A DNA stretch of 64,000 nt from a virus (IMGVR_UViG_3300020577_007233:32001-96000); one strand, 5' to 3'. Shown: positions 588 to 32,100, counted from the stretch's first letter. Translations and numbers: made by a program. Notes: generated from the letters alone by a model not told the origin.

Positions 588-2564
588 TCACCCAAACATA
601 TCGCCGGCTTCAACGCCTTTTTTCCTAGCTCTCTTGAGGTCTTCTCGAATGATGGTAAACTCTTTCATGATATCATCCTTTGATTTACCTCTTCCCTGCT
701 TTGGCTTAAAGAAACCAGCAGCCAGTAAAGATTCTACAGCTTTCGTATCAACAACCTTCGTATCTGTCTTTTCTGCAAAGTCTTTCAAACTCGTATAAGG
801 CTGATTCTTTTCGATATTCTCAACAGCCGCATCACTAAGGCCTTTACACTTCAAAGAAGGCATAATTTGCGATTTAGGAACTCCATTGGACGGATCTGCC
901 TTAGATGCAATGTAATATCTAGCCTTACAATCGTTGATATGTCTCTGAAGAATCTCTACATTCATTTCCTTAGCCATCTTTTCCAACGATTCTACCTTTT
1001 CATACTTTGACCTACCGATTTCAACATTGAGATAAGCAGTAAGAAATTCTTCTGGATAATTGGCCTTCAGGTATGCTGTAATGTAAGAATTGTACGCATA
1101 GCAACAAGCGTGAGCCTTATTGAAGCCGTAATCCGCAAACGGCATGATGACTCTATCCCAATAGTCTTGGGCAACTTTACCATCTATACCGTTTTCTTGC
1201 GCGCCAGAAATGAATCTAGCTCGATACTTTGCAAGCAGTTCTGGCTTCTTCTTACCAATAGCTTTGATAACAACGTAACCTTCAGGGATCGAAAAGCCTG
1301 CAACAGCGTTGCATATCTGCATGACCTGTTCTTGATAAACAAGCAGTCCATACGTCTTCTTGAGATATGGCTCAATATGCTTCCTCAAAGAAGAATGGAA
1401 GTAATCTATTGGTTCGACACCGTGCTTACGATTGCAGTAAGTAGGAACTGACTCCATAGGGCCGGGACGGTACAAAGCTATACCTGCCATGATATCATCA
1501 AGAGAGTCAACTCCCATGTTTACCATTGTCTTTTGCATTCCATGCTCTTCGCACTGGAACACTCCGACAAGCTGACCGCTCTTATAGAGATCAAACGTCT
1601 TTCGATCATCTAGAGGCAAATCGTAAACGTCAATATCTATACCATAGTTCTCTTTTACAAGCCTGCAACAATGGTTGATAACAGAAAGGGTACTAAGAGC
1701 AAGAATATCGAACTTGATAAGACCAAGCAATTCAAGATCGTTGTACTCAAACTGAGTAGCAAATGTATACTTAGGCCCATCATTTTCTTCGCCGTCTTCG
1801 CTGACAATCTTGGTCTGGCGAAGCGGCGCTATGCTTGATAGAGGCTCATTCGAAATAACAATACCGGCAGCATGCACTCCGAAAGTAGAAAGTAATCCCT
1901 CGATATTGCGAGAGTGAGTGAGGATATCTGGGTATTTGTCAACGTAGTAACGAAAATTCTTGCACCACTTGTAAGCGTCCTCGACAGTTTTGATTGCATG
2001 TTCATTGCCATCCTGATCCTTAACCTTCAAAAAGGCTCCATATTGCTCAGGGAGTGAGTCAAGAATCTCATTTCCCAACTCATTTGTTTCAACTTTCCAC
2101 TGATCATGACCTTTGAAGAAAGTTCTTTCTGGATCAACAGCCTTGATGACCCTTCTAACGAAGCTCTTCATCTTGAGGCCAGAATACGTTCCTATGTTTC
2201 CAACGTGTTCTCTTCCGTATGTATCAATAATGTACTTATAGATTTCGTTTCGATGCTCATAATCGAAATCTGAATCAATATCGGGAAAGCCCTTACGGGC
2301 AAAAGCTCGACGCTTCTGCAAGAACGAAGAACCTTCGTCTGGCTTTTTGTCAGTCATTCCAAGAGCATAAGCGGTCCATGAGTTGATCTCATTTCTCTTG
2401 CCCTTTTTGCCAGCAGAGTTTTTCCATAGTCCATGAAACTTCTGAAGAATAGGCTTTTCATCAAGCCCTTCAGTTTTTTCCATCTTTTCAAGCTCTTCTT
2501 GAACAAGAGGAAGTAACGACTTATCTTGAATAGCTTCTAGAATTTCTTCTTTAATTGTTGACAT
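588..2564 (-). CDS. dnaE: DNA polymerase III alpha (DnaE), C-terminal fragment: palm aspartates, fingers, HhH, terminal clamp-binding-like motif
   Basis: RKGFPDIDSDF, GVHAAGIVI, LIKFDILAL, GVFQCE, ALYRPGPM, YQEQVMQI, YGFNKAHA, YLKANYPEEF; ends AGDMFG; no PHP domain and no OB fold. Confidence 0.95.
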   Translation of the reverse strand: MSTIKEEILEAIQDKSLLPLVQEELEKMEKTEGLDEKPILQKFHGLWKNSAGKKGKRNEINSWTAYALGMTDKKPDEGSSFLQKRRAFARKGFPDIDSDFDYEHRNEIYKYIIDTYGREHVGNIGTYSGLKMKSFVRRVIKAVDPERTFFKGHDQWKVETNELGNEILDSLPEQYGAFLKVKDQDGNEHAIKTVEDAYKWCKNFRYYVDKYPDILTHSRNIEGLLSTFGVHAAGIVISNEPLSSIAPLRQTKIVSEDGEENDGPKYTFATQFEYNDLELLGLIKFDILALSTLSVINHCCRLVKENYGIDIDVYDLPLDDRKTFDLYKSGQLVGVFQCEEHGMQKTMVNMGVDSLDDIMAGIALYRPGPMESVPTYCNRKHGVEPIDYFHSSLRKHIEPYLKKTYGLLVYQEQVMQICNAVAGFSIPEGYVVIKAIGKKKPELLAKYRARFISGAQENGIDGKVAQDYWDRVIMPFADYGFNKAHACCYAYNSYITAYLKANYPEEFLTAYLNVEIGRSKYEKVESLEKMAKEMNVEILQRHINDCKARYYIASKADPSNGVPKSQIMPSLKCKGLSDAAVENIEKNQPYTSLKDFAEKTDTKVVDTKAVESLLAAGFFKPKQGRGKSKDDIMKEFTIIREDLKRARKKGVEAGDMFG

Positions 2565-3201
2565 TTACATTCTCCGTTGTTATTCTGGGCAAAACAACGC
2601 CAGGGCCGTACACCCAATACCCAATTTGATTATTTTGATTAGAACATCTTTTTTGTTGATTACTATATTTTAGACTATAAGAACCTAGTTTGAAATTCTT
2701 TTCCGATATTTCTAAATCACAAGAATATTCTGTTCCAGAATTATGGTAAAGTTCATTATCTATGTTTTTAACAAGCTGAATGTTTTCATTACGATAATTT
2801 TGCATAAAACTTCTACATAAATTAGCCATTTCTTCCACAAAGAAAAGCCTTCTTAAGTCAAACGAATGCTGACCCAATTCATAATAGCTTATGAGTTCTA
2901 CTTTGAAATAGTCTAGAAAATACAATCCATCTTTCGAATTAACACTAGAAGGAAAACACGGAACTGCGCAGCAATATTTACCTTCATGAAGTTTGTCATC
3001 TAAAATCATTTCAAGAAATGACTGCTCGCCAGATGTTACAAACATGCTTGGATTGCATTCAAGAACATCCTTTTCAGTAAAAAGCTTAGGACAGGTAATC
3101 AACATCGCTTCCTTAGAAACACTCCAAGGAACATCTATGTATTTATATCCATGTTTTTCATAAAATGAAATTGCTTCGACAACTATTTTGTAGTCAATCA
3201 T
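2551..3201 (-). CDS. minimal class II aminoacyl-tRNA synthetase-like protein, probably catalytically degenerate paralog
   Basis: Aligns end to end with 3214..3801 (YKYIDVPW, SGEQSFL, GKYCCAVPCF, FKVELI, LGSY, WVYGPGVVLPR), but the motif-2 Arg is replaced by Pro. Confidence 0.7.
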   Translation of the reverse strand: MIDYKIVVEAISFYEKHGYKYIDVPWSVSKEAMLITCPKLFTEKDVLECNPSMFVTSGEQSFLEMILDDKLHEGKYCCAVPCFPSSVNSKDGLYFLDYFKVELISYYELGQHSFDLRRLFFVEEMANLCRSFMQNYRNENIQLVKNIDNELYHNSGTEYSCDLEISEKNFKLGSYSLKYSNQQKRCSNQNNQIGYWVYGPGVVLPRITTENVNVNN

Positions 3202-3213
3202 TTAGCCCGCCAT

Positions 3214-3801
3214 TTAGTGAAACAATCTCGGAAGAGCAACTCCTGTTCCGTACATCCATCTGCCGCAACTAGGATGAGATCTCAGTCCATAAGAACCCAA
3301 TTCGACACCTTTGCTAGTGACAACATCGTAGTTCACAAACGTATCGCACTCATGTCTTGGATCATCTTCTGTTTGAACAAAGTCAAGCTCATCAGTAATA
3401 ACGCTACCCATAAACGCCATAGCATCATGTATCATGTCGCCAAGACCAAACTCGCTAAAATCTTGAGCAAGCGTATTGATTAACTCAACCTTGAAGAATT
3501 GAGAAAAATGCAAGCCATCTTTCTTGAGTCCGTCAAACTTTCGATAACATGGAGTTGCGCAACAGTATTTGCCCGGAGGCAGTTCTTGATTAAGAATCAT
3601 CTGCAAAAACGATTGTTCACCAGAAGCAACCATTTCTTCTTCTCGAATCGAATTTGGTTCTATACAGGTTGGAAGAGTAACTAATAAGGCTCTTTTGGAA
3701 ACAACCCAAGGAACTTCAATGTACTTGTATTCCGCAATATCTTCGTAGTAACGAATAGCCATATTGACGGCATCATAATCAATCAAGGGAAATCTACTCA
3801 T
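3214..3801 (-). CDS. minimal class II aminoacyl-tRNA synthetase-like ligase (catalytic core only)
   Basis: Motif 1-like YKYIEVPWVV, motif 2-like TPCYR...DGLH..FFKVEL, ELGSYGLR, motif 3-like YGTGVALPRL; no anticodon-binding domain (195 aa). Confidence 0.75.
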   Translation of the reverse strand: MSRFPLIDYDAVNMAIRYYEDIAEYKYIEVPWVVSKRALLVTLPTCIEPNSIREEEMVASGEQSFLQMILNQELPPGKYCCATPCYRKFDGLKKDGLHFSQFFKVELINTLAQDFSEFGLGDMIHDAMAFMGSVITDELDFVQTEDDPRHECDTFVNYDVVTSKGVELGSYGLRSHPSCGRWMYGTGVALPRLFH

Positions 3802-4046
3802 TGTCTACTCCCGTCCATAAACGCAGATCTCGTTGCATTAGACATCTTAATAAGGTCTTCGATAGTGAAAGCAGGAAGTCTAAAACTCAAATAACCCTGT
3901 ATGGCTCCGACTAAATCAGAAAGCTCAACGAGAGCCATAATCTTATTGCCCTGTTCTTCTGCGTCCTGAAGCTCTTGAAGCTCTTCTACAATCTTAGATA
4001 TCTCGCCATACTTGCCCTTTGTGATATGTCTACGATGATAGCCCAT
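3798..4046 (-). CDS. small all-alpha NTP pyrophosphohydrolase (MazG/HisE-like)
   Basis: ExxE...ExxD motif (IVEELQEL...VELSDLVGAI); start moved to MGYH at 4046, which has GGAG upstream; ATGA overlap with the aaRS-like gene. Confidence 0.7.
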   Translation of the reverse strand: MGYHRRHITKGKYGEISKIVEELQELQDAEEQGNKIMALVELSDLVGAIQGYLSFRLPAFTIEDLIKMSNATRSAFMDGSRQ

Positions 4047-4047
4047 A

Positions 4048-4899
4048 TTATTCTCCAAAACACATTGATTCAACCCCGTGCCTTTCGGCATAGGAACTTT
4101 TCTTAACAATGAGCAATTCAATCTCTCTGTCTTTCTCTTCTTCTGTTTGCATGCTTTTTGCTACAGACTTTTTATAGTAAGCAAAACCTTCCTTTTCAGG
4201 ATAAAGCTGCCTAATAGCTTCGCTGTCGTAATACGAGATTGCACAACTGCCTTTGACTGATTTTACAACACCAGCCATCTCTTTATGATCAAATCCCTTT
4301 TTCTTGTTTACATGATAGAAGTTCTTTTCAACATTTTTGTAAGGAGGGTCAAGATAAAAAAGAGCTTCTGGACAATCCCATTTTCTCATACAATCTTCGT
4401 AGTCAAGATTCTCTATGTAAACATGGCGAAGAAAAGCTGCGCATTGTTCAATAAGAGGAGGCAATCTTGCCCAAGTTAGACAAATGTTCTCGCCAGTTCT
4501 AGAAACACACCATGAACCATCTTCCTTACCAAACATGCACTGTCTGTTATAGATGAGATAGTTTCTGGCCCATTCAACAGGGTTTTCTTTCAAGAAATCT
4601 TTATCGCCTTCAATATACTCGTTGGCAAGATCAAAGTCTCTTCTACTATAAGGGGTCGTAACAACTGCGCTTAAGAACTCGTCCCTATGATCTCTAATAA
4701 CTCTAAATAGATTCCATACATGACCATCCAGGTCGTTATAGATCATTCTGTATTTGTCGTCGGGTTTAGGCATGCCATACCCAACCGCAAAACTTCCGCC
4801 AAATGGCTCGCAGTATACGGTATGAGCAGGCAAGTGTTTGATTATCCATTTACGAATTTTCACTTTACCGCCTATTCTTTTTATGATAGTGTCTGCCAT
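4048..4899 (-). CDS. DNA adenine methyltransferase, Dam/D12-class
   Basis: RIGGK, YCEPFGGS, YNDLD, IENLDY, FYLDPPY; start moved to MADT at 4899 with GAGGGGAG upstream. Confidence 0.9.
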   Translation of the reverse strand: MADTIIKRIGGKVKIRKWIIKHLPAHTVYCEPFGGSFAVGYGMPKPDDKYRMIYNDLDGHVWNLFRVIRDHRDEFLSAVVTTPYSRRDFDLANEYIEGDKDFLKENPVEWARNYLIYNRQCMFGKEDGSWCVSRTGENICLTWARLPPLIEQCAAFLRHVYIENLDYEDCMRKWDCPEALFYLDPPYKNVEKNFYHVNKKKGFDHKEMAGVVKSVKGSCAISYYDSEAIRQLYPEKEGFAYYKKSVAKSMQTEEEKDREIELLIVKKSSYAERHGVESMCFGE

Positions 4900-5420
4900 T
4901 CTCTCCCCTCGCCAAGGATCTCCCAAGTGTTTTTTCTGTAATCCACAAGTCGATAAAACTTAGCATCGGAAATGGGAACTTTTCGAACATAATCCGGTCC
5001 TCTTCTTGTATTTTCAAGAACAGGATTCAGCGGGTCATAAGCTTCATACTTTATGATAGCGATTCCCTTAAGATCTTCGCTGCAAAGAGCAAAGGTTGTA
5101 AACCTATTTCTTGAGTTCGCTTCCTTACTCTTCCTGTTAAGTACATTAACTGTATCAAACGGGAAGTACCCATTACCAAACGCCCAGTTATGCTTTATCT
5201 CTGCGCTTATGATAAGGTGTTTGCCGCCTAAATCGCATTCAATATCCCTATGATAGGGTAAATCTCTTTCTGAACCTGCCTCTGCTATCAGATTCTTGGC
5301 TCCAAGTCTGTGAAGAAGACTAAATACAGCCATCTTAGCAAGAACATCGCACTCGAAGTCTTCCTCTCGGAAGCGAGAAGCCTCTTTTCCTTTGATGCTT
5401 TTGTCAACTTGAATCATCAT
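4881..5420 (-). CDS. PD-(D/E)xK-family nuclease-like protein
   Basis: RDIECD...SAEIKHNW (D...ExK signature); likely start MMIQ at 5420, 1 nt after the dnaE-N stop. Confidence 0.55.
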   Translation of the reverse strand: MMIQVDKSIKGKEASRFREEDFECDVLAKMAVFSLLHRLGAKNLIAEAGSERDLPYHRDIECDLGGKHLIISAEIKHNWAFGNGYFPFDTVNVLNRKSKEANSRNRFTTFALCSEDLKGIAIIKYEAYDPLNPVLENTRRGPDYVRKVPISDAKFYRLVDYRKNTWEILGEGREWQTLS

Positions 5421-5421
5421 T

Positions 5422-6831
5422 TCAATACCTATCAACTCCGCCAGCATCCTCAGTAACATCTCGGTCTTCAAACAACTCGGTATTAACAACCTCTTCAATA
5501 GCTGGAACTGCTACTTCTTCGCCAAAGAAATCTTGTTCTTGAACGAAATACTTATCATCAAAACCAAGGAATCGTTCCCAAATCAAGTCATACTTCAAAG
5601 GATCTGGTCCGTAAGAAATGCCTATAGCTCTAAGAAGAACGCTAGCATAACCAGAACCTCGACCACACCCTGTTAGGATGTTCTGATCCTTAGCTTTCTG
5701 TATGTAGTCTCTAACGATCAAGAAATAAGTCGCAAAGTCATACTTGTTATTTTCCCAAGCAACTCTTACGTCCTCAAGTTCTCGCTTAAGTCTTTCAACA
5801 TGCGGAGGGCTTCTATCCCATCCCAATTTCTTCATTCCCTCCCATGAAAGGTGAGAAAGATAGTCAAACGGAGAAGCAAACCCTTCCGGCATTTTGTACC
5901 TAGGCAAACGCATGCCTGAATTCATATTGGTCCAAATGTCCTTTGCGTCAACCTTGTCAGCAACAGTTACGGTATTCAGCAAGAACTCTGGATGAGAACC
6001 AAACATAACAGCCATCTCAGCGGCTGACTTCATGTAAAATTCATGGTAAGGGAAATGCAAGTGCTTTGGATCGTGCAAGCATCTACTTGTAGACATGCAC
6101 ATAAGAATTTCTTGCGAGAGTCCGTGTTCTTTCTTGCAGTAGTGACAGTCATTGGTAGCAATAATCGGAACGTTCATGTCCTTTCCGATTTTAATGATAT
6201 CTGGAATGATCATAGCTTCTGCATCAATGCCATGATACATAACTTCCAAATGGAAGTCTTCCTTGAAGATGTCCTTGAAGATGCCAACAGCTTTCCTTGC
6301 CTCTTCAACTCTACCATGAAGAATGTTTGCGTTGATTACGCTGCTCAAGCAAGCTGAGTTGCACATAAGACCTTCGCTATGCTTGGCAAGAAGCGGAAGG
6401 TCAATACGAGGGTCAATATACCATCCCTCTGTCCAAGACTGCTGAGAAAGGGCGCAAAGATTCTGCCACCCCTTCCAGTTTTTGGCTATCAACACAAGGT
6501 GTCTATTACCCTTGCGACCCTCTGTTTGGCCTTTGATAACTTTAGTACCTTCTCTTTTTTCAGTAAAGCGAAGGTTTCTGTCTTTGGATAAGTAGAATTC
6601 GCATCCAACAATAGGCTTGATGTCAAAGTTCTTTTCTTTGTCATTCCAGCAAGATTGAATGAACTTGACTGCTCCACCGATATTTCCGTGGTCAGTTAAG
6701 GCTAGGGCTTTGAATCCCATCTCTTTTGCAGATTTAGCAAATCCTGAAAGCTTATTCAGCCCGTCAAAAGACGAGTATTCCGAGTGGTTGTGAAGATGCA
6801 CAAAATCCGCATTGGTTATCGTTCTGCTCAT
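5422..6831 (-). CDS. dnaE: DNA polymerase III alpha (DnaE), N-terminal fragment: PHP domain and start of the palm
   Basis: FVHLHNHSEYS, ALTDHGN, KPIVGCEFY, ATNDCHY, YFLIVRDYI, GCGRGSG, DPLKYDLIWERFL, then a 46-aa acidic tail and stop. Confidence 0.95.
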   Translation of the reverse strand: MSRTITNADFVHLHNHSEYSSFDGLNKLSGFAKSAKEMGFKALALTDHGNIGGAVKFIQSCWNDKEKNFDIKPIVGCEFYLSKDRNLRFTEKREGTKVIKGQTEGRKGNRHLVLIAKNWKGWQNLCALSQQSWTEGWYIDPRIDLPLLAKHSEGLMCNSACLSSVINANILHGRVEEARKAVGIFKDIFKEDFHLEVMYHGIDAEAMIIPDIIKIGKDMNVPIIATNDCHYCKKEHGLSQEILMCMSTSRCLHDPKHLHFPYHEFYMKSAAEMAVMFGSHPEFLLNTVTVADKVDAKDIWTNMNSGMRLPRYKMPEGFASPFDYLSHLSWEGMKKLGWDRSPPHVERLKRELEDVRVAWENNKYDFATYFLIVRDYIQKAKDQNILTGCGRGSGYASVLLRAIGISYGPDPLKYDLIWERFLGFDDKYFVQEQDFFGEEVAVPAIEEVVNTELFEDRDVTEDAGGVDRY

Positions 6832-29100: not shown

Positions 29101-32100
29101 CATCTCTTAGAGCGGAATTGTCTGACTGCTGCTGAGATTGGTCGCCTCCATCAGTTTCGCTACCAGCGTTTGAATCAGGGAACAAGAGTATACCCTGCAC
29201 AAGAACTCTTATAGAAGATGACGGATGCTCTCCAACATCATTGATAAGTTCTATAGCAACCGTTGCAGACTGCTTGCCATCAAGTCTAATAGAAGAAGGA
29301 TTGGCGCTTGCCTTAATTTGCAAAAATCCGGCAGGACGACCGCTCGTAAGACCGCCAGCGGTATAGATGTACCTCCACTGATCGCTTGTTCCACCAAACG
29401 ATGTCTTGGCTGTAGGCATCCTAGTAAGAGAATCGTATGAATAAGTAGGAGAGCCTTCTTCTATAAGATCAAAAACGCTCAGAACCTGAGACTTTGCACT
29501 TGAACCTCCAATGAAGTAGTGAGAATCATATATGCTTGCTGAAACACCTCTATACCTTGGAGCAGGTATCTGATCGTAAATGTAATCGTCAAGAGAAATA
29601 GTCAAGTCATTCAAGTTAATCTTGAATGAATCGGTTACAAACTCAAGAGGCTGTTCGCCTGTATCTTCGTTTCTTACCCCTGGAATTGCTCCGCCAAGAA
29701 CATGAATCTCTGAGGTATCGGCAGTAGCAAACGCGAAAGGAGCAACTCTCTCGTAAAGAGTTAAGTCAACTCCACTAAACGCTTCGCTATACGACCAAGT
29801 TCCTGAATCGAAATCGTAAACAAGTATTCTGTCGTTGACAGCATCAATAGAACCCTTTTGTCCTATCTTCCTAATTCCACCTATAATGTAAGCCTTGCCG
29901 TATATAACAACACAAGTTCCGAGAGCAACACCATATGTATTCTGATCGAAAGTTGGCATCACCCCAACGTTTTCCCATGCATCTGTTTCCGTGTTGTATC
30001 TTTCTATTGAGTCTGTTATGGTTAGGTTAGACCCATCAGCAACTATTCCGCCGAAGACGTAAATGTAAATGCCATCTTGGGCTGCCATATGATAGAACCT
30101 AGGAACGGACATGGCTTCCATTGTCGTCCAAGTATCTGATTCGACATCATATCTTTCGTTGTAACCAAGAATAGATTTACCATCAAGCCCACCGATTGCA
30201 TAAAGCTGTTCGCCGTATGGATTGAAAGTCCAGCTAAGAGTTAGGCAACCTCTTGGGTGACTCATTGGAGTCTTAGTTTCCCAAGTGTTGCTGAACGTAT
30301 CGTATATATCAAGAGAACCGCTAAAGACGTTGCTTATTTCGCCTTCTGGCTTTTCTTCTGTTGTGTCCTCTTTTGGCTGCGAAGGGTCGTACTTTATGGT
30401 TACGCAACAAGTCATGCTGCGCTCTACATCTCCTCGTTTATCATACTTTGTTTCTGCCTGAACCTGAGCTTCAAAAGCGCTTTCTGGTCCAAACGCAGCA
30501 ACAAAGAATGAAGCAAAACTTCTTACTGGCCCAGTTGGATTAAGTATGCTATCGTTGACCTTTTCTGTGTATACGGTATCGCTAAGCAATATGATCTTTT
30601 CTGGATTCTTACCAGCAATAGTCAAGAAAACAGGAGTACCGTTTGGTACTGGCTTTTGCTTAAAAGTTACCTCAACAACAAACTCATGTACAGATACGCC
30701 ATCGCAAAGAACTTTCTCTACACTACTACCATTCCTTCTGATATCAACAACTAATATATCAAGAGGCTCTTTTAGCTCAACAGTTGTTGGAGGAACTCCA
30801 CCTTTGATATCTCCTCCGCCTCTTAGATATCTCGTTTCTCCATTGAAGTTAATAGAGGTAGAGCCATTGATGACAAGCAAATCTTTCTTCTTTGCTGCGC
30901 CTGGAGGAATGTCTATGCAAGAACAAATGTTACCAGCTTGGTTGTTATCATCGTCGCCTCCGCTTGTTGATTTTGGTCTTCCTACAAACTTGTTGATTCT
31001 AAGATAAAATGAAGTGCTGTTTCCTGTTTGCGCAAGAGGAACTTGAGCAAATCCTATTTGCTCATTTGCTTGCGTTACTACATATTCTTCCAAATCTTCA
31101 TCATATGTAGTAACCAAATCGTCTCCGTAAAGGATTTCGAAGTCAGATCCAGATTCAACATCAATGATTTGCCCATTATCCAAAACGAATATTGGTTTTC
31201 CTGCGTTATTGGCGCATTCTCTAAAGCACTCAGCAAGGACTCCTCCTGTTATATTTGGATCATGATAAACCGTAACAGGCAAAAGCTGATAACCGTCAGC
31301 ATATAGAGTATTGACATACTGAGGAGTAGTCATTAGGAAACGAGAACCAAAGCCAAGACCCGCAAAGTTAGGCGGATAGATTAGGGCAGGCCTTTCTTCA
31401 AATGCACTTAAACCATCGTAAACAACAGATGCTTTGATTGCATAAAGCTCTGGCAAATAGATGATATTACCTGGACATGGAACGTAAAGTTCCCATGAAA
31501 CACCGCATGCTGGGCCAAAGAAGATTCTTCTTGCCGTTCCGTTTCTTGTGTATGAGAAAACGCCCGGTCCTGCGGGAACGTTGTCTGTAGAATAAAACGG
31601 ACGGTCCTTAGCGTTGCGACCTTTTCTTAATGTCCAACGAACAACCTGCTGTCCTTCAACAGGAATTTTCCTAGGACGCTCAGTATCAGGACTGTCAGGG
31701 TCTATCATATAAACCCTTGCTTGTTGCTCGGCAACGTCAATACAGTTAGAATCAGGTGGTTCTATTGTCGTTTCAACCCTAAGAATACTGTCGAATACAA
31801 TGTACATCTTCTTACGAGCGTAATATCCATTGTATCCCGCTTTACCAAAAAGCATAACAGCTTGAGGAGAATGAGGTGATCTCAACGGTATATCTGCATA
31901 TGAAACTTGCTTAGTTGTTCCATCGGTTAGCGTCTGTAGGCCAGTCCTAAGAGGAATAGAAGTTGCTGGCGGCTGCACCGCTCGACTTCTTCTATCAGAG
32001 AAACCAGGAACGAAAGGCCGTCTTTCAGAAGAACCCCCAAGCCCCTGCGAACAAGGGTTAGAGTCTGAATCGTCATCCGGATCGCATTGAGGGTCTGAGG

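Follow-up and report, generated by a model that had tools for sequence, protein, structure and literature searches.

A MazG-like protein and a minimal seryl-tRNA synthetase-type core form a conserved viral gene pair that is joined by a probably non-catalytic second core in a large phage

Within the locus of a split DnaE polymerase, a phage with a genome of 256,820 bp carries a three-gene cassette that is best explained as one copy of a conserved viral two-enzyme unit, consisting of a MazG-like protein and a minimal class II core of the seryl-tRNA synthetase (SerRS) type (mini-SerRS), together with an extra dead subunit (Table 1). The cassette was analyzed in a window of 64,000 nucleotides (IMGVR_UViG_3300020577_007233, positions 32001 to 96000), and the synthetase-like proteins are referred to as copy A and copy B. 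We are highly confident about the identity of the two paired proteins and their linkage. Our best explanation as a whole, a host-takeover or counter-defence unit of two enzymes with a dead extra subunit, is given a little less than an even chance.

Table 1. Genes of the cassette and its surroundings, with positions counted from the first nucleotide of the window.
Feature	Position	Strand	Support
Split DnaE, C-terminal half	588..2564	-	Pfam DNA_pol3_alpha, finger, HHH_6
Copy B, second mini-SerRS core, 216 aa	2551..3201	-	PHROG 4806, E 3e-24
Copy A, minimal SerRS-type class II core, 195 aa	3214..3801	-	PHROG 4806, E 1e-29
MazG-like ORF, Atd1-like family (phrog_6408), 82 aa	3798..4046	-	PHROG E 7e-34
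Dam-type N6-adenine DNA methyltransferase, directly upstream of the cassette	4048..4926	-	Pfam MethyltransfD12, E 7e-25
Split DnaE, N-terminal half (PHP and start of palm)	5422..6831	-	Pfam PHP E 4e-40, DNA_pol3_alpha

The three ORFs and the overlapping ATGA that joins the MazG-like stop to the start of copy A, both described from the sequence alone in an earlier note, were confirmed at the same coordinates, and judging from the PHROG E-values in Table 1 the three-ORF pattern is far beyond chance. The ATG of the MazG-like ORF lies one base past the methyltransferase stop and is preceded by GGAG 7 nt upstream; copies A and B are separated by 12 nt, and the end of copy B overlaps the start of dnaE-C by 14 nt. 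Such tight packing suggests that the cassette is co-transcribed. Promoter-like sites were no more frequent than expected by chance, and the terminator-like sites (13 compared to 5.1 in shuffled sequences) are all weak stems of 5-7 pairs, located mostly within coding sequence, and therefore no operon boundary was read from them.

The AF2 model of the MazG-like protein (pLDDT 94.6) has HisE 2a7w as its top Foldseek match (prob 0.99, rmsd 1.1 A, 56 aligned columns), with MazG 1vmg and 3cra also among the top matches; the best eight are HisE/MazG chains with probabilities of 0.99-0.75 and, for this short protein, E-values of at least 0.4. Across 63 relatives, Y3, H4, K18, E21, E22, E25, E41, D44, and T72 are invariant, and these include the EExxE and ExxD metal ligands (E21, E22, E25, E41, and D44). 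Both the ExxE...ExxD pattern and the all-alpha NTP-pyrophosphatase fold proposed in the earlier note are thereby borne out, and the model shows a predicted HisE/MazG all-alpha fold with a complete acidic metal-ligand set. The protein scored below the cut-off of Pfam PRA-PH (16.6 bits compared to 21.3, E 0.01), one relative (P0272) just exceeded it (21.5 bits), and searches of NCBIfam and PADLOC returned no matches. While helical fold and metal site are the same as in HisE and minimal MazG (2a7w, 1yvw, 1vmg), the MazG-like protein has additional invariant segments, an N-terminal G-Y-H and a C-terminal T..AF..G.R, which lie outside the sequence and fold matches obtained to HisE/MazG chains, and, in contrast to HisE, it lacks a histidine-pathway context.

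For copy A, the AF2 model (pLDDT 95.8) bears out the class II core fold that had been proposed for the 195-aa protein. The Foldseek matches listed all come from SerRS or PylRS, the best having an E-value of 2e-9, and VIA-align superimposed SerRS chains with Z-scores of 19.0-17.0 and rmsd values of 2.5-2.9 A, covering 186 of the 195 residues at best; residues 162-389 of 1ser_A align to model residues 1-195 (Z 19.0, rmsd 2.8 A). At the sequence level, the profile of the mini-SerRS family matched SerRS chains in the PDB with an E-value of 9e-7, and hhalign aligned the family to one bacterial SerRS with a probability of 94.7. A 232-aa bacterial protein is intermediate: it matches the serS model TIGR00414 (E 1.8e-16, albeit with only 60 bits compared to a cut-off of 302) and aligns to the phage family through motif 3 (hhalign probability 96.8). 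Neither copy matched Pfam, NCBIfam, or PADLOC, and copy A thus did not match TIGR00414; a single-sequence search of copy A against PDB sequences yielded no match, and the family profile, when cut down to its C-terminal half, matched no synthetase, so that this half on its own has no sequence-level link to SerRS.

The class II motifs 1, 2, and 3 that the earlier note had seen are represented in copy A by P31, R87, and R192, respectively, and these residues are retained in 62, 62, and all of the 63 family sequences, respectively. S60, E62, E106, E167, S170, and T186 are conserved as well. E62 and E106 align to the glutamates of the SerRS TxE and KVE elements, and T186 is assigned only from its spacing and from where the structural alignment ends; from the range of this alignment, we take T186 and R192 to be Thr380 and Arg386 in the numbering of Thermus thermophilus SerRS, and E62, E106, and T186 presumably have the serine-site roles of their counterparts in the T. 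thermophilus structures. With bacterial SerRS (class IIa), copy A shares SGEQ (TxE-type), the C(F/Y)R of motif 2, the F-K-V-E strand, the E-x-x-S Mg ligands, and the G-T-G-x-A-x-P-R of motif 3. Model and alignment together show copy A as a predicted complete SerRS-type class II core that has kept the residues for ATP and Mg and, presumably, those of the amino acid site. It differs from SerRS in being half the size, in lacking the coiled-coil arm, in being paired nearly always with a MazG-like protein, and in its almost entirely viral distribution. The protein begins at the catalytic core, and there is no coding room for an N-terminal tRNA-binding arm, as its start overlaps the MazG-like stop; its motif-2 loop is also about 6 residues shorter than in SerRS. 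Of the class II synthetase cores known to us, copy A is one of the smallest. Proteins of this family are routinely mislabelled as 'histidyl tRNA synthetase'.

The SerRS-like amino acid:carrier-protein ligases are likewise shortened class II cores that have no tRNA-binding domain; they activate a small amino acid, are descended from the SerRS of the methanogen type, and have a neighbouring carrier protein as their target. Bll0957 of Bradyrhizobium (3mey) matches copy A with a Z-score of 14.7, ranking below bacterial-type SerRS, and no carrier-protein gene was found by Pfam and PHROG among the seven genes of the block. The best structural matches also include chains of HisZ and of HisRS-like proteins (Z 16.7-17.4), which would suit a non-catalytic mini-SerRS that senses a ligand and regulates the pyrophosphatase as HisZ, a HisRS paralog, regulates HisG; copy B, in addition, demonstrates that the fold tolerates the loss of catalytic residues. 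However, HisZ has dispensable catalytic motifs and a HisG partner, whereas no HisG-like gene was found among the seven genes of the block, and the motif-2 arginine, the Mg-binding glutamate and serine, and the motif-3 arginine are kept in 62 of 63 members. Such conservation is expected of an enzyme that adenylates and not of a sensor, and we regard the regulatory role as highly improbable.

Copy B is 41% identical to copy A and is the only one of the 63 sequences with R87P, E167K, R174K, T186P, H98Y, and G172S. Thus, its description as a second copy holds, but the claim that this paralog has motifs 1, 2, and 3 fails, since the motif-2 arginine is replaced by proline; the Mg-binding glutamate is lost as well. 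In the phylogenetic tree, copy B clusters (SH-aLRT 95) with P0021, P0009, and P0022, which come from other jumbo phages, and its branch is 1.1 long (median 0.45); the closest relatives (L122, L125-L127) do not have it. These comparisons indicate that copy B is not a local duplicate and was acquired separately. It is probably non-catalytic and may represent either a non-catalytic subunit, possibly a heterodimer partner of copy A, or a decaying gene.

The mini-SerRS family comprises 1,701 cluster representatives at 50% identity. Of 82 loci in which the linkage of the pair was examined, 80 (approximately 98%) have a MazG-like gene that shares its strand with mini-SerRS, in either order. End-to-start fusions of core and partner arose in several lineages; they were seen in 4 loci, in 15 of 246 proteins, and in 8 further cases, and the join is located 8-12 residues past the PR of motif 3. 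The repeated adjacency or fusion that the earlier note had proposed to look for is therefore strongly evident. Among phage records, 276 contain the core and 218 the partner, while 185,579 species genomes yielded no more than 33 loci, each of them on a contig from a metagenome-assembled genome; the mini-SerRS family is almost entirely viral. No conserved third gene accompanies the pair among approximately 290 flanking genes analyzed by clustering and Pfam, with the 25 commonest neighbour families listed; YqeY, RlaP, a CCA-adding enzyme, and RNR are local add-ons. Neither longer mini-SerRS proteins nor proteins with short N-terminal extensions had informative extra domains.

The position of the pair between dnaE-N and dnaE-C recurs in loci L002, L003, L006, L122, L125, and L126, the last three of which also have the methyltransferase gene preceding it. 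Together with a structural match to Pol gamma B (Z 13.4), this would fit a class II accessory subunit of the Pol gamma B kind, or a modifier of the polymerase, serving the split DnaE. However, Pol gamma B ranks far below SerRS, gene content at the dnaE split differs between relatives, and most of the approximately 80 other loci have no DnaE adjoining the pair and present unrelated contexts. The suggested link to the polymerase locus therefore holds only in close relatives of this phage, and a role in its service, which we rejected on the distribution of the pair, has an almost negligible likelihood.

Our literature search found no paper on the mini-SerRS/MazG-like pair, and MazG-like enzymes are treated only in general terms by Iyer et al. 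2021 (PMC7824862). The MazG-like partner can nevertheless be connected to an experimental result: in a single in vitro report, Atd1 (anti-TIR defence 1) of Pectobacterium phage PcCB7V was described as a MazG-like ppGpp pyrophosphatase that cleaved no rNTPs (Ho et al., 10.1101/2022.06.09.495361). The preprint gives no accession for Atd1, but it states that ORFs within 4 genes of listed NTases were screened, and QQG33502.1 is on its NTase list (10.1101/2022.06.09.495361). QQG33500 lies two genes from QQG33502.1 and is the sole HisE/MazG-like gene within four genes, whereas the canonical MazG of PcCB7V is approximately 50 genes away. Within four genes of this canonical MazG, nothing is annotated as a nucleotidyltransferase; a gene for a DNA ligase is two genes off. 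From screen design, NTase list, and gene map, we deduce that QQG33500 is very probably Atd1. The MazG-like protein of our phage is equal in length to QQG33500 and 50% identical to it over 80 residues (E 3e-27), with the EExxE and E-x-x-D residues aligned, and by this similarity it probably belongs to the ppGpp-degrading Atd1 family. In PcCB7V, the mini-SerRS gene is five genes from the NTase and hence outside the four-gene range of the screen; Atd1 was studied alone, whereas the MazG-like protein described here is accompanied by mini-SerRS.

Because the MazG-like partner is in the family of QQG33500, very probably Atd1, the evidence points more to control of an alarmone than to a modified-nucleotide pathway. 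The two proteins would act as one complex, in which the core would bind ATP together with serine or something closely similar to it and form an aminoacyl-adenylate, from which the acyl group would be passed to an acceptor chosen otherwise than canonical SerRS chooses tRNA-Ser. The MazG-like partner would hydrolyze a pyrophosphate-bearing nucleotide, with ppGpp being the single substrate reported for the very probable family member Atd1. The target would be the starvation alarm axis that leads from uncharged tRNA via RelA and ppGpp to toxin activation: the pyrophosphatase would remove the alarmone, and mini-SerRS would intervene at an earlier step, at the 3' ends of tRNAs, or else share the nucleotide pool of its partner. 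We put this mechanism forward tentatively, as possible rather than probable.

Some neighbours and fusion partners hint at a link to translation or tRNA. YqeY adjoins the pair, a CCA-adding enzyme and Pth are near it, RlaP was found near it as well, and PTH2, RNA ligases, and Thg1 are among the flanking genes; furthermore, the MazG-like domain is fused to RF-1/GGQ, and a sister phage (core 83% identical to copy A) has an ArgRS-N/MazG-like chimera. Such recruitment of tRNA-binding and ribosome-rescue domains would be consistent with the care of tRNA 3' ends, in which the core docks on the CCA end of a host tRNA, the partner strips a blocking pyrophosphate, for example one attached by defence enzymes of the toxSAS/CapRel type, and the core then acylates the freed 3'-OH, protecting the end and lowering uncharged tRNA. 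Reportedly (Kurata et al. 2021), ppGpp and 3'-pyrophosphorylated A76 both carry a 3'-diphosphate group. However, the coiled-coil arm and the motif-2 loop are the tRNA contacts of SerRS, and of these copy A has lost the former and shortened the latter. Furthermore, no tRNA gene was found in the 256,820-bp genome, RNA-related neighbours are a small minority of the approximately 290 flanking genes, and the ArgRS-N chimera rests on a single 1.6-kb contig. We therefore consider tRNA 3'-end care unlikely.

The surroundings of the pair are heterogeneous: nucleotide-metabolism genes (RNR, DHFR, and dCMP deaminase) are about as common next to it as RNA-related ones. Further fusions join the MazG-like domain to a cupin-like one (66 representatives), to radical SAM, and to a PolB-type exonuclease. 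The cupin-like domain gave weak hints of Cupin_2, Cupin_7, and DUF4437 only; a PDB profile search returned nothing meaningful for it, and the Atlas only unnamed viral clusters. The three kinds of fusion suit a role in alarmone control no better than a pathway that handles small molecules or nucleotides. The earlier note had envisaged such a pathway, leading to an aminoacylated or adenylated nucleotide: the core would attach an amino acid to a nucleotide that is free, or adenylate a nucleotide, and the MazG-like protein would trim the triphosphate, yielding a signal, an inhibitor, or a precursor of modified DNA. Consistent with this, fusion is common among enzymes of successive steps, as seen here for core and partner, cupin-like and radical-SAM proteins are typical tailoring enzymes and in every such fusion the mini-SerRS gene is next, and the HisE-like fold acts on base-modified ATP. 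Nevertheless, if QQG33500 is Atd1, the partner cleaved no rNTPs in vitro. Acylation of a free nucleotide is also not known to us for any class II paralog, and amino-acid-modified DNA has, to our knowledge, not been reported for the well-studied phi92-like, phiCbK-like, and Certrevirus phages that carry the pair, which leaves this pathway decidedly unlikely. Finally, it appears very unlikely that the two proteins form a composite enzyme with a chemistry new to class II synthetases, which might, for example, serylate or adenylylate a pyrophosphate-bearing nucleotide or a blocked tRNA 3' end and remove the pyrophosphate; large phages would thus disarm alarmone- or tRNA-directed immunity, and in this phage the dead subunit would retune the activity.

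The pair is widespread but unstudied as such, with the MazG-like partner probably being the sole member with an experimental record (Atd1). As Atd1 was screened and assayed without its near-constant synthetase-like neighbour, the reported activity may be half the story. This phage provides a natural pair of a presumably active and an apparently dead copy (A and B), which is useful for dissecting subunit roles. Mini-SerRS occurs in over a thousand phage lineages. The substrate of the pair, once worked out, would define a new use of the aminoacyl-tRNA synthetase fold and would also inform our view of the way in which large phages deal with the stringent response and with TIR- or tRNA-directed defences.

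The synthetase-like and MazG-like genes belong to seven tightly packed minus-strand genes running from dnaE-N through dnaE-C. Reading the junctions directly in the sequence revealed one base between the methyltransferase stop and the MazG-like ATG, the ATGA overlap of the MazG-like stop with the start of copy A that the earlier note had described, a 12-nt gap between copies A and B, and a 14-nt overlap of copy B with the dnaE-C start. The 205-aa ORF lacks a match in Pfam, PHROGs, or PADLOC; in relatives, a gene encoding 177-192 aa occupies the same site. The whole viral record is a single jumbo-phage contig of 256,820 bp, in which ARAGORN found no tRNA or tmRNA genes.

Coordinates of features in the window, in contigs of relatives (L-numbers), and in protein cluster representatives (P-numbers)
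Feature	Sequence	Position	Strand	Remark
dnaE-N	window	5422-6831	minus	
205-aa ORF	window	4881-5498	minus	overlaps dnaE-N end and methyltransferase start
Dam-type methyltransferase	window	4048-4926	minus	
MazG-like ORF	window	3798-4046	minus	82 aa
aaRS-like copy A	window	3214-3801	minus	
copy B	window	2551-3201	minus	
dnaE-C	window	588-2564	minus	
Cupin-like/MazG-like fusions	P0248-P0365			e.g., P0257:1-189
Cupin-like/MazG-like fusion	L028	4788-5606		
Cupin-like/MazG-like fusion	L081	5175-6002		
Cupin-like domain	L062	6521-7126		
MazG-like/RF-1 (GGQ) fusion	L019	5306-5989		also P0293, P0295, P0300
Radical-SAM/MazG-like fusion and mini-SerRS	L131	3001-4687		
ArgRS N-terminal/MazG-like chimera	L123	178-606		
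dnaE-N with Hint_2 and LAGLIDADG matches	L125	1-2380		
PcCB7V region of the pair	L084	96503-107985		

Pfam returned no match for the synthetase-like protein, and copies A and B matched PHROG 4806, labeled "histidyl tRNA synthetase", with E-values of 1e-29 and 3e-24, respectively. For the predicted structure of copy A (pLDDT 95.8, from an alignment of 63 relatives), the Foldseek matches listed were SerRS and PylRS cores. In an exhaustive structural comparison, SerRS came first (Z 19.0-17.0, rmsd ~2.8 Å, 186/195 residues aligned), followed by HisRS/HisZ (Z ~17), PylRS (16), the carrier-protein ligase Bll0957 (14.7), Pol gamma B (13.4), and AsnA (13.3), which bears out the class II aaRS fold proposed in the earlier note. 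At the sequence level, the family profile reached SerRS chains (E 9e-7), a bacterial SerRS aligned with the family at an hhalign probability of 94.7, and these alignments place SGEQ on the TxE motif of SerRS, C(F/Y)R on motif 2, and F-K-V-E on the second strand of motif 2. Furthermore, a 232-aa bacterial relative (serS model E 1.8e-16) bridges the two, aligning with the phage family through motif 3. In comparison to SerRS, the motif-2 loop of the phage core is approximately six residues shorter and the N-terminal arm is absent, with residues 162-389 of 1ser_A corresponding to model residues 1-195; given the SerRS-type matches and the missing arm, the PHROG 4806 name is therefore a misnomer. 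Near-invariant positions of the family include P31, S60, E62, R87, E106, E167, S170, T186, and R192, which would correspond to the ATP, Mg, and serine ligands of T. thermophilus SerRS. Copy A is a minimal SerRS-type core ("mini-SerRS") that looks catalytically competent, and it is not a canonical tRNA-Ser synthetase. That a protein retaining these positions serves as a sensor is unlikely.

Copy B is indeed a second aaRS-like gene, as previously noted. The residues that define the fold are retained in it, as is the segment S60-E62-Q63; among the 63 sequences, it is the sole carrier of R87P, E167K, R174K, T186P, H98Y, and G172S. In a quick maximum-likelihood tree, it did not pair with copy A; it fell into a group (SH-aLRT 95) with copies found on contigs of other jumbo phages, and its branch length was 1.1 compared to a median of 0.45. 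Moreover, the closest relatives (core identity to copy A, 96% and 83%) carry dnaE-N, methyltransferase, MazG-like gene, core, and dnaE-C without copy B. Lost residues, tree position, and absence from these relatives together mark it as a recent, separately acquired insertion that has lost catalytic residues; it may be a pseudo-enzyme that serves as a subunit, or else a gene undergoing decay.

The small protein matched PHROG 6408 (E 7e-34) and, under the cut-off, Pfam PRA-PH (E 0.01). Its family is unusually conserved (mean column identity 59%), with Y3, H4, K18, E21, E22, E25, E41, D44, and T72 invariant. HisE and MazG chains were the first structural matches of its model (pLDDT 94.6), with probabilities up to 0.99 and an rmsd of 1.1 Å over 56 aligned columns, in agreement with the suggested all-alpha MazG/HisE-type fold; the E-values are weak, as is to be expected for a protein of 82 residues.

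Linkage of the two genes was assessed in 82 loci: 80 from IMG/VR, fetched via the synthetase-like protein, the annotated phage ESCO9, and the window. A same-strand MazG-like gene was present in 80 of them, in either gene order and mostly overlapping the mini-SerRS gene or within 60 nt of it, and one-ORF fusions of the pair were found in 4 loci and at least 23 further cluster representatives, invariably joined 8-12 residues past the motif-3 PR. The repeated adjacency that the earlier note proposed to look for is established, and we consider the identity of both proteins and their linkage solid. The mini-SerRS family comprises 1,701 representatives at 50% identity; 276 phage records carry it and 218 carry the MazG-like partner, including phi92/phAPEC8-like, Certrevirus, phiCbK-like, Brevundimonas and other jumbo phages as well as Acinetobacter and Campylobacter phages. 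In a set of 185,579 species genomes, the family is confined to 33 contigs, each belonging to a metagenome-assembled genome. No conserved third gene was found beside the pair among ~290 flanking genes. In some lineages, YqeY, a CCA-adding enzyme, Pth, and RlaP adjoin it, and a direct role of the pair in tRNA 3'-end care is conceivable, if rather doubtful.

In the window, two genes encode the parts of DnaE; 2.9 kb of cargo separates them, and an intein is absent. In a close relative (L125, core 96% identical to copy A), dnaE-N encodes 854 aa, with Hint_2 and LAGLIDADG matches predicting an intein, and an additional ORF of 477 aa occupies the split in another relative; cargo at this position therefore varies. 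The place of the pair within the polymerase locus, which the earlier note had called suggestive, is a landing site specific to this clade, with variable cargo, and no functional link. A role of the pair as polymerase accessory is unlikely.

A search for longer forms revealed further fusions of the MazG-like domain. In 66 representatives, it follows a virus-specific, cupin-like domain of ~190 aa with an invariant HxH...H (H52, H54, H134) and weak cupin matches, which is absent from the window's genome; 5 representatives carry a radical-SAM, 3 an RF-1/GGQ, and 2 a PolB-type exonuclease domain. The RF-1/GGQ domain (peptidyl-tRNA hydrolase type) is C-terminal, with Pfam matches under the family cut-off (E 7e-5 to 9e-5). 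A mini-SerRS-sized gene follows the fusion in all three contigs examined (two cupin, one radical-SAM) and is synthetase-like by Pfam in two. In contig L131, a 331-aa radical-SAM/MazG-like fusion overlaps a 232-aa mini-SerRS (serS E 1.8e-16), and the contig has further genes for EngB-like and Der-like GTPases and a spore permease. The arrangement appears to be a Firmicute-like, chromosomal form of the pair. In a sister phage (L123, core 83% identical to copy A), the tRNA-binding ArgRS N-terminal domain (Pfam E 5.7e-9) replaces MazG-like codons 1-17, giving an in-frame, 142-aa chimera with residues 18-82 that is still ATGA-coupled to the mini-SerRS; 99% DNA identity to the relative L122 begins exactly at the junction.

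Ho et al. screened phage ORFs up to four genes from listed nucleotidyltransferases (NTases), among them QQG33502.1 of phage PcCB7V, and obtained a MazG-like PcCB7V protein, Atd1, which releases pyrophosphate from ppGpp (Km ~50 µM), not from rNTPs or c-di-GMP, and relieves TIR-STING and retron-TIR toxicity (10.1101/2022.06.09.495361). QQG33500, annotated as phosphoribosyl-ATP pyrophosphatase and 50% identical to the window's MazG-like protein, lies two genes downstream of QQG33502. The only canonical MazG of PcCB7V is ~50 genes away, with no annotated NTase within four genes and a DNA ligase two genes off. From the NTase list, the gene map, and this distance, we deduce that Atd1 is very probably QQG33500. 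If so, its mini-SerRS partner, QQG33497, five genes downstream of the NTase, fell outside the screened range. In PcCB7V, two inserted ORFs split the pair, which is adjacent in phiTE, and the genes shortly upstream of it encode a CCA-adding enzyme, Pth, and the MNT-like NTase.

We tentatively favor a host-takeover or counter-defence unit that would act on the uncharged-tRNA/RelA/ppGpp alarm axis. Its chief competitors are direct tRNA 3'-end care and the earlier proposal that the pair makes and turns over an aminoacylated or adenylated nucleotide, the latter being improbable. A literature search found no paper on the MazG-like/mini-SerRS pair, to which the window contributes an inactive-looking extra copy, a tRNA-free jumbo-phage genome, the dnaE-split context, and a wider catalogue of MazG-like fusions.
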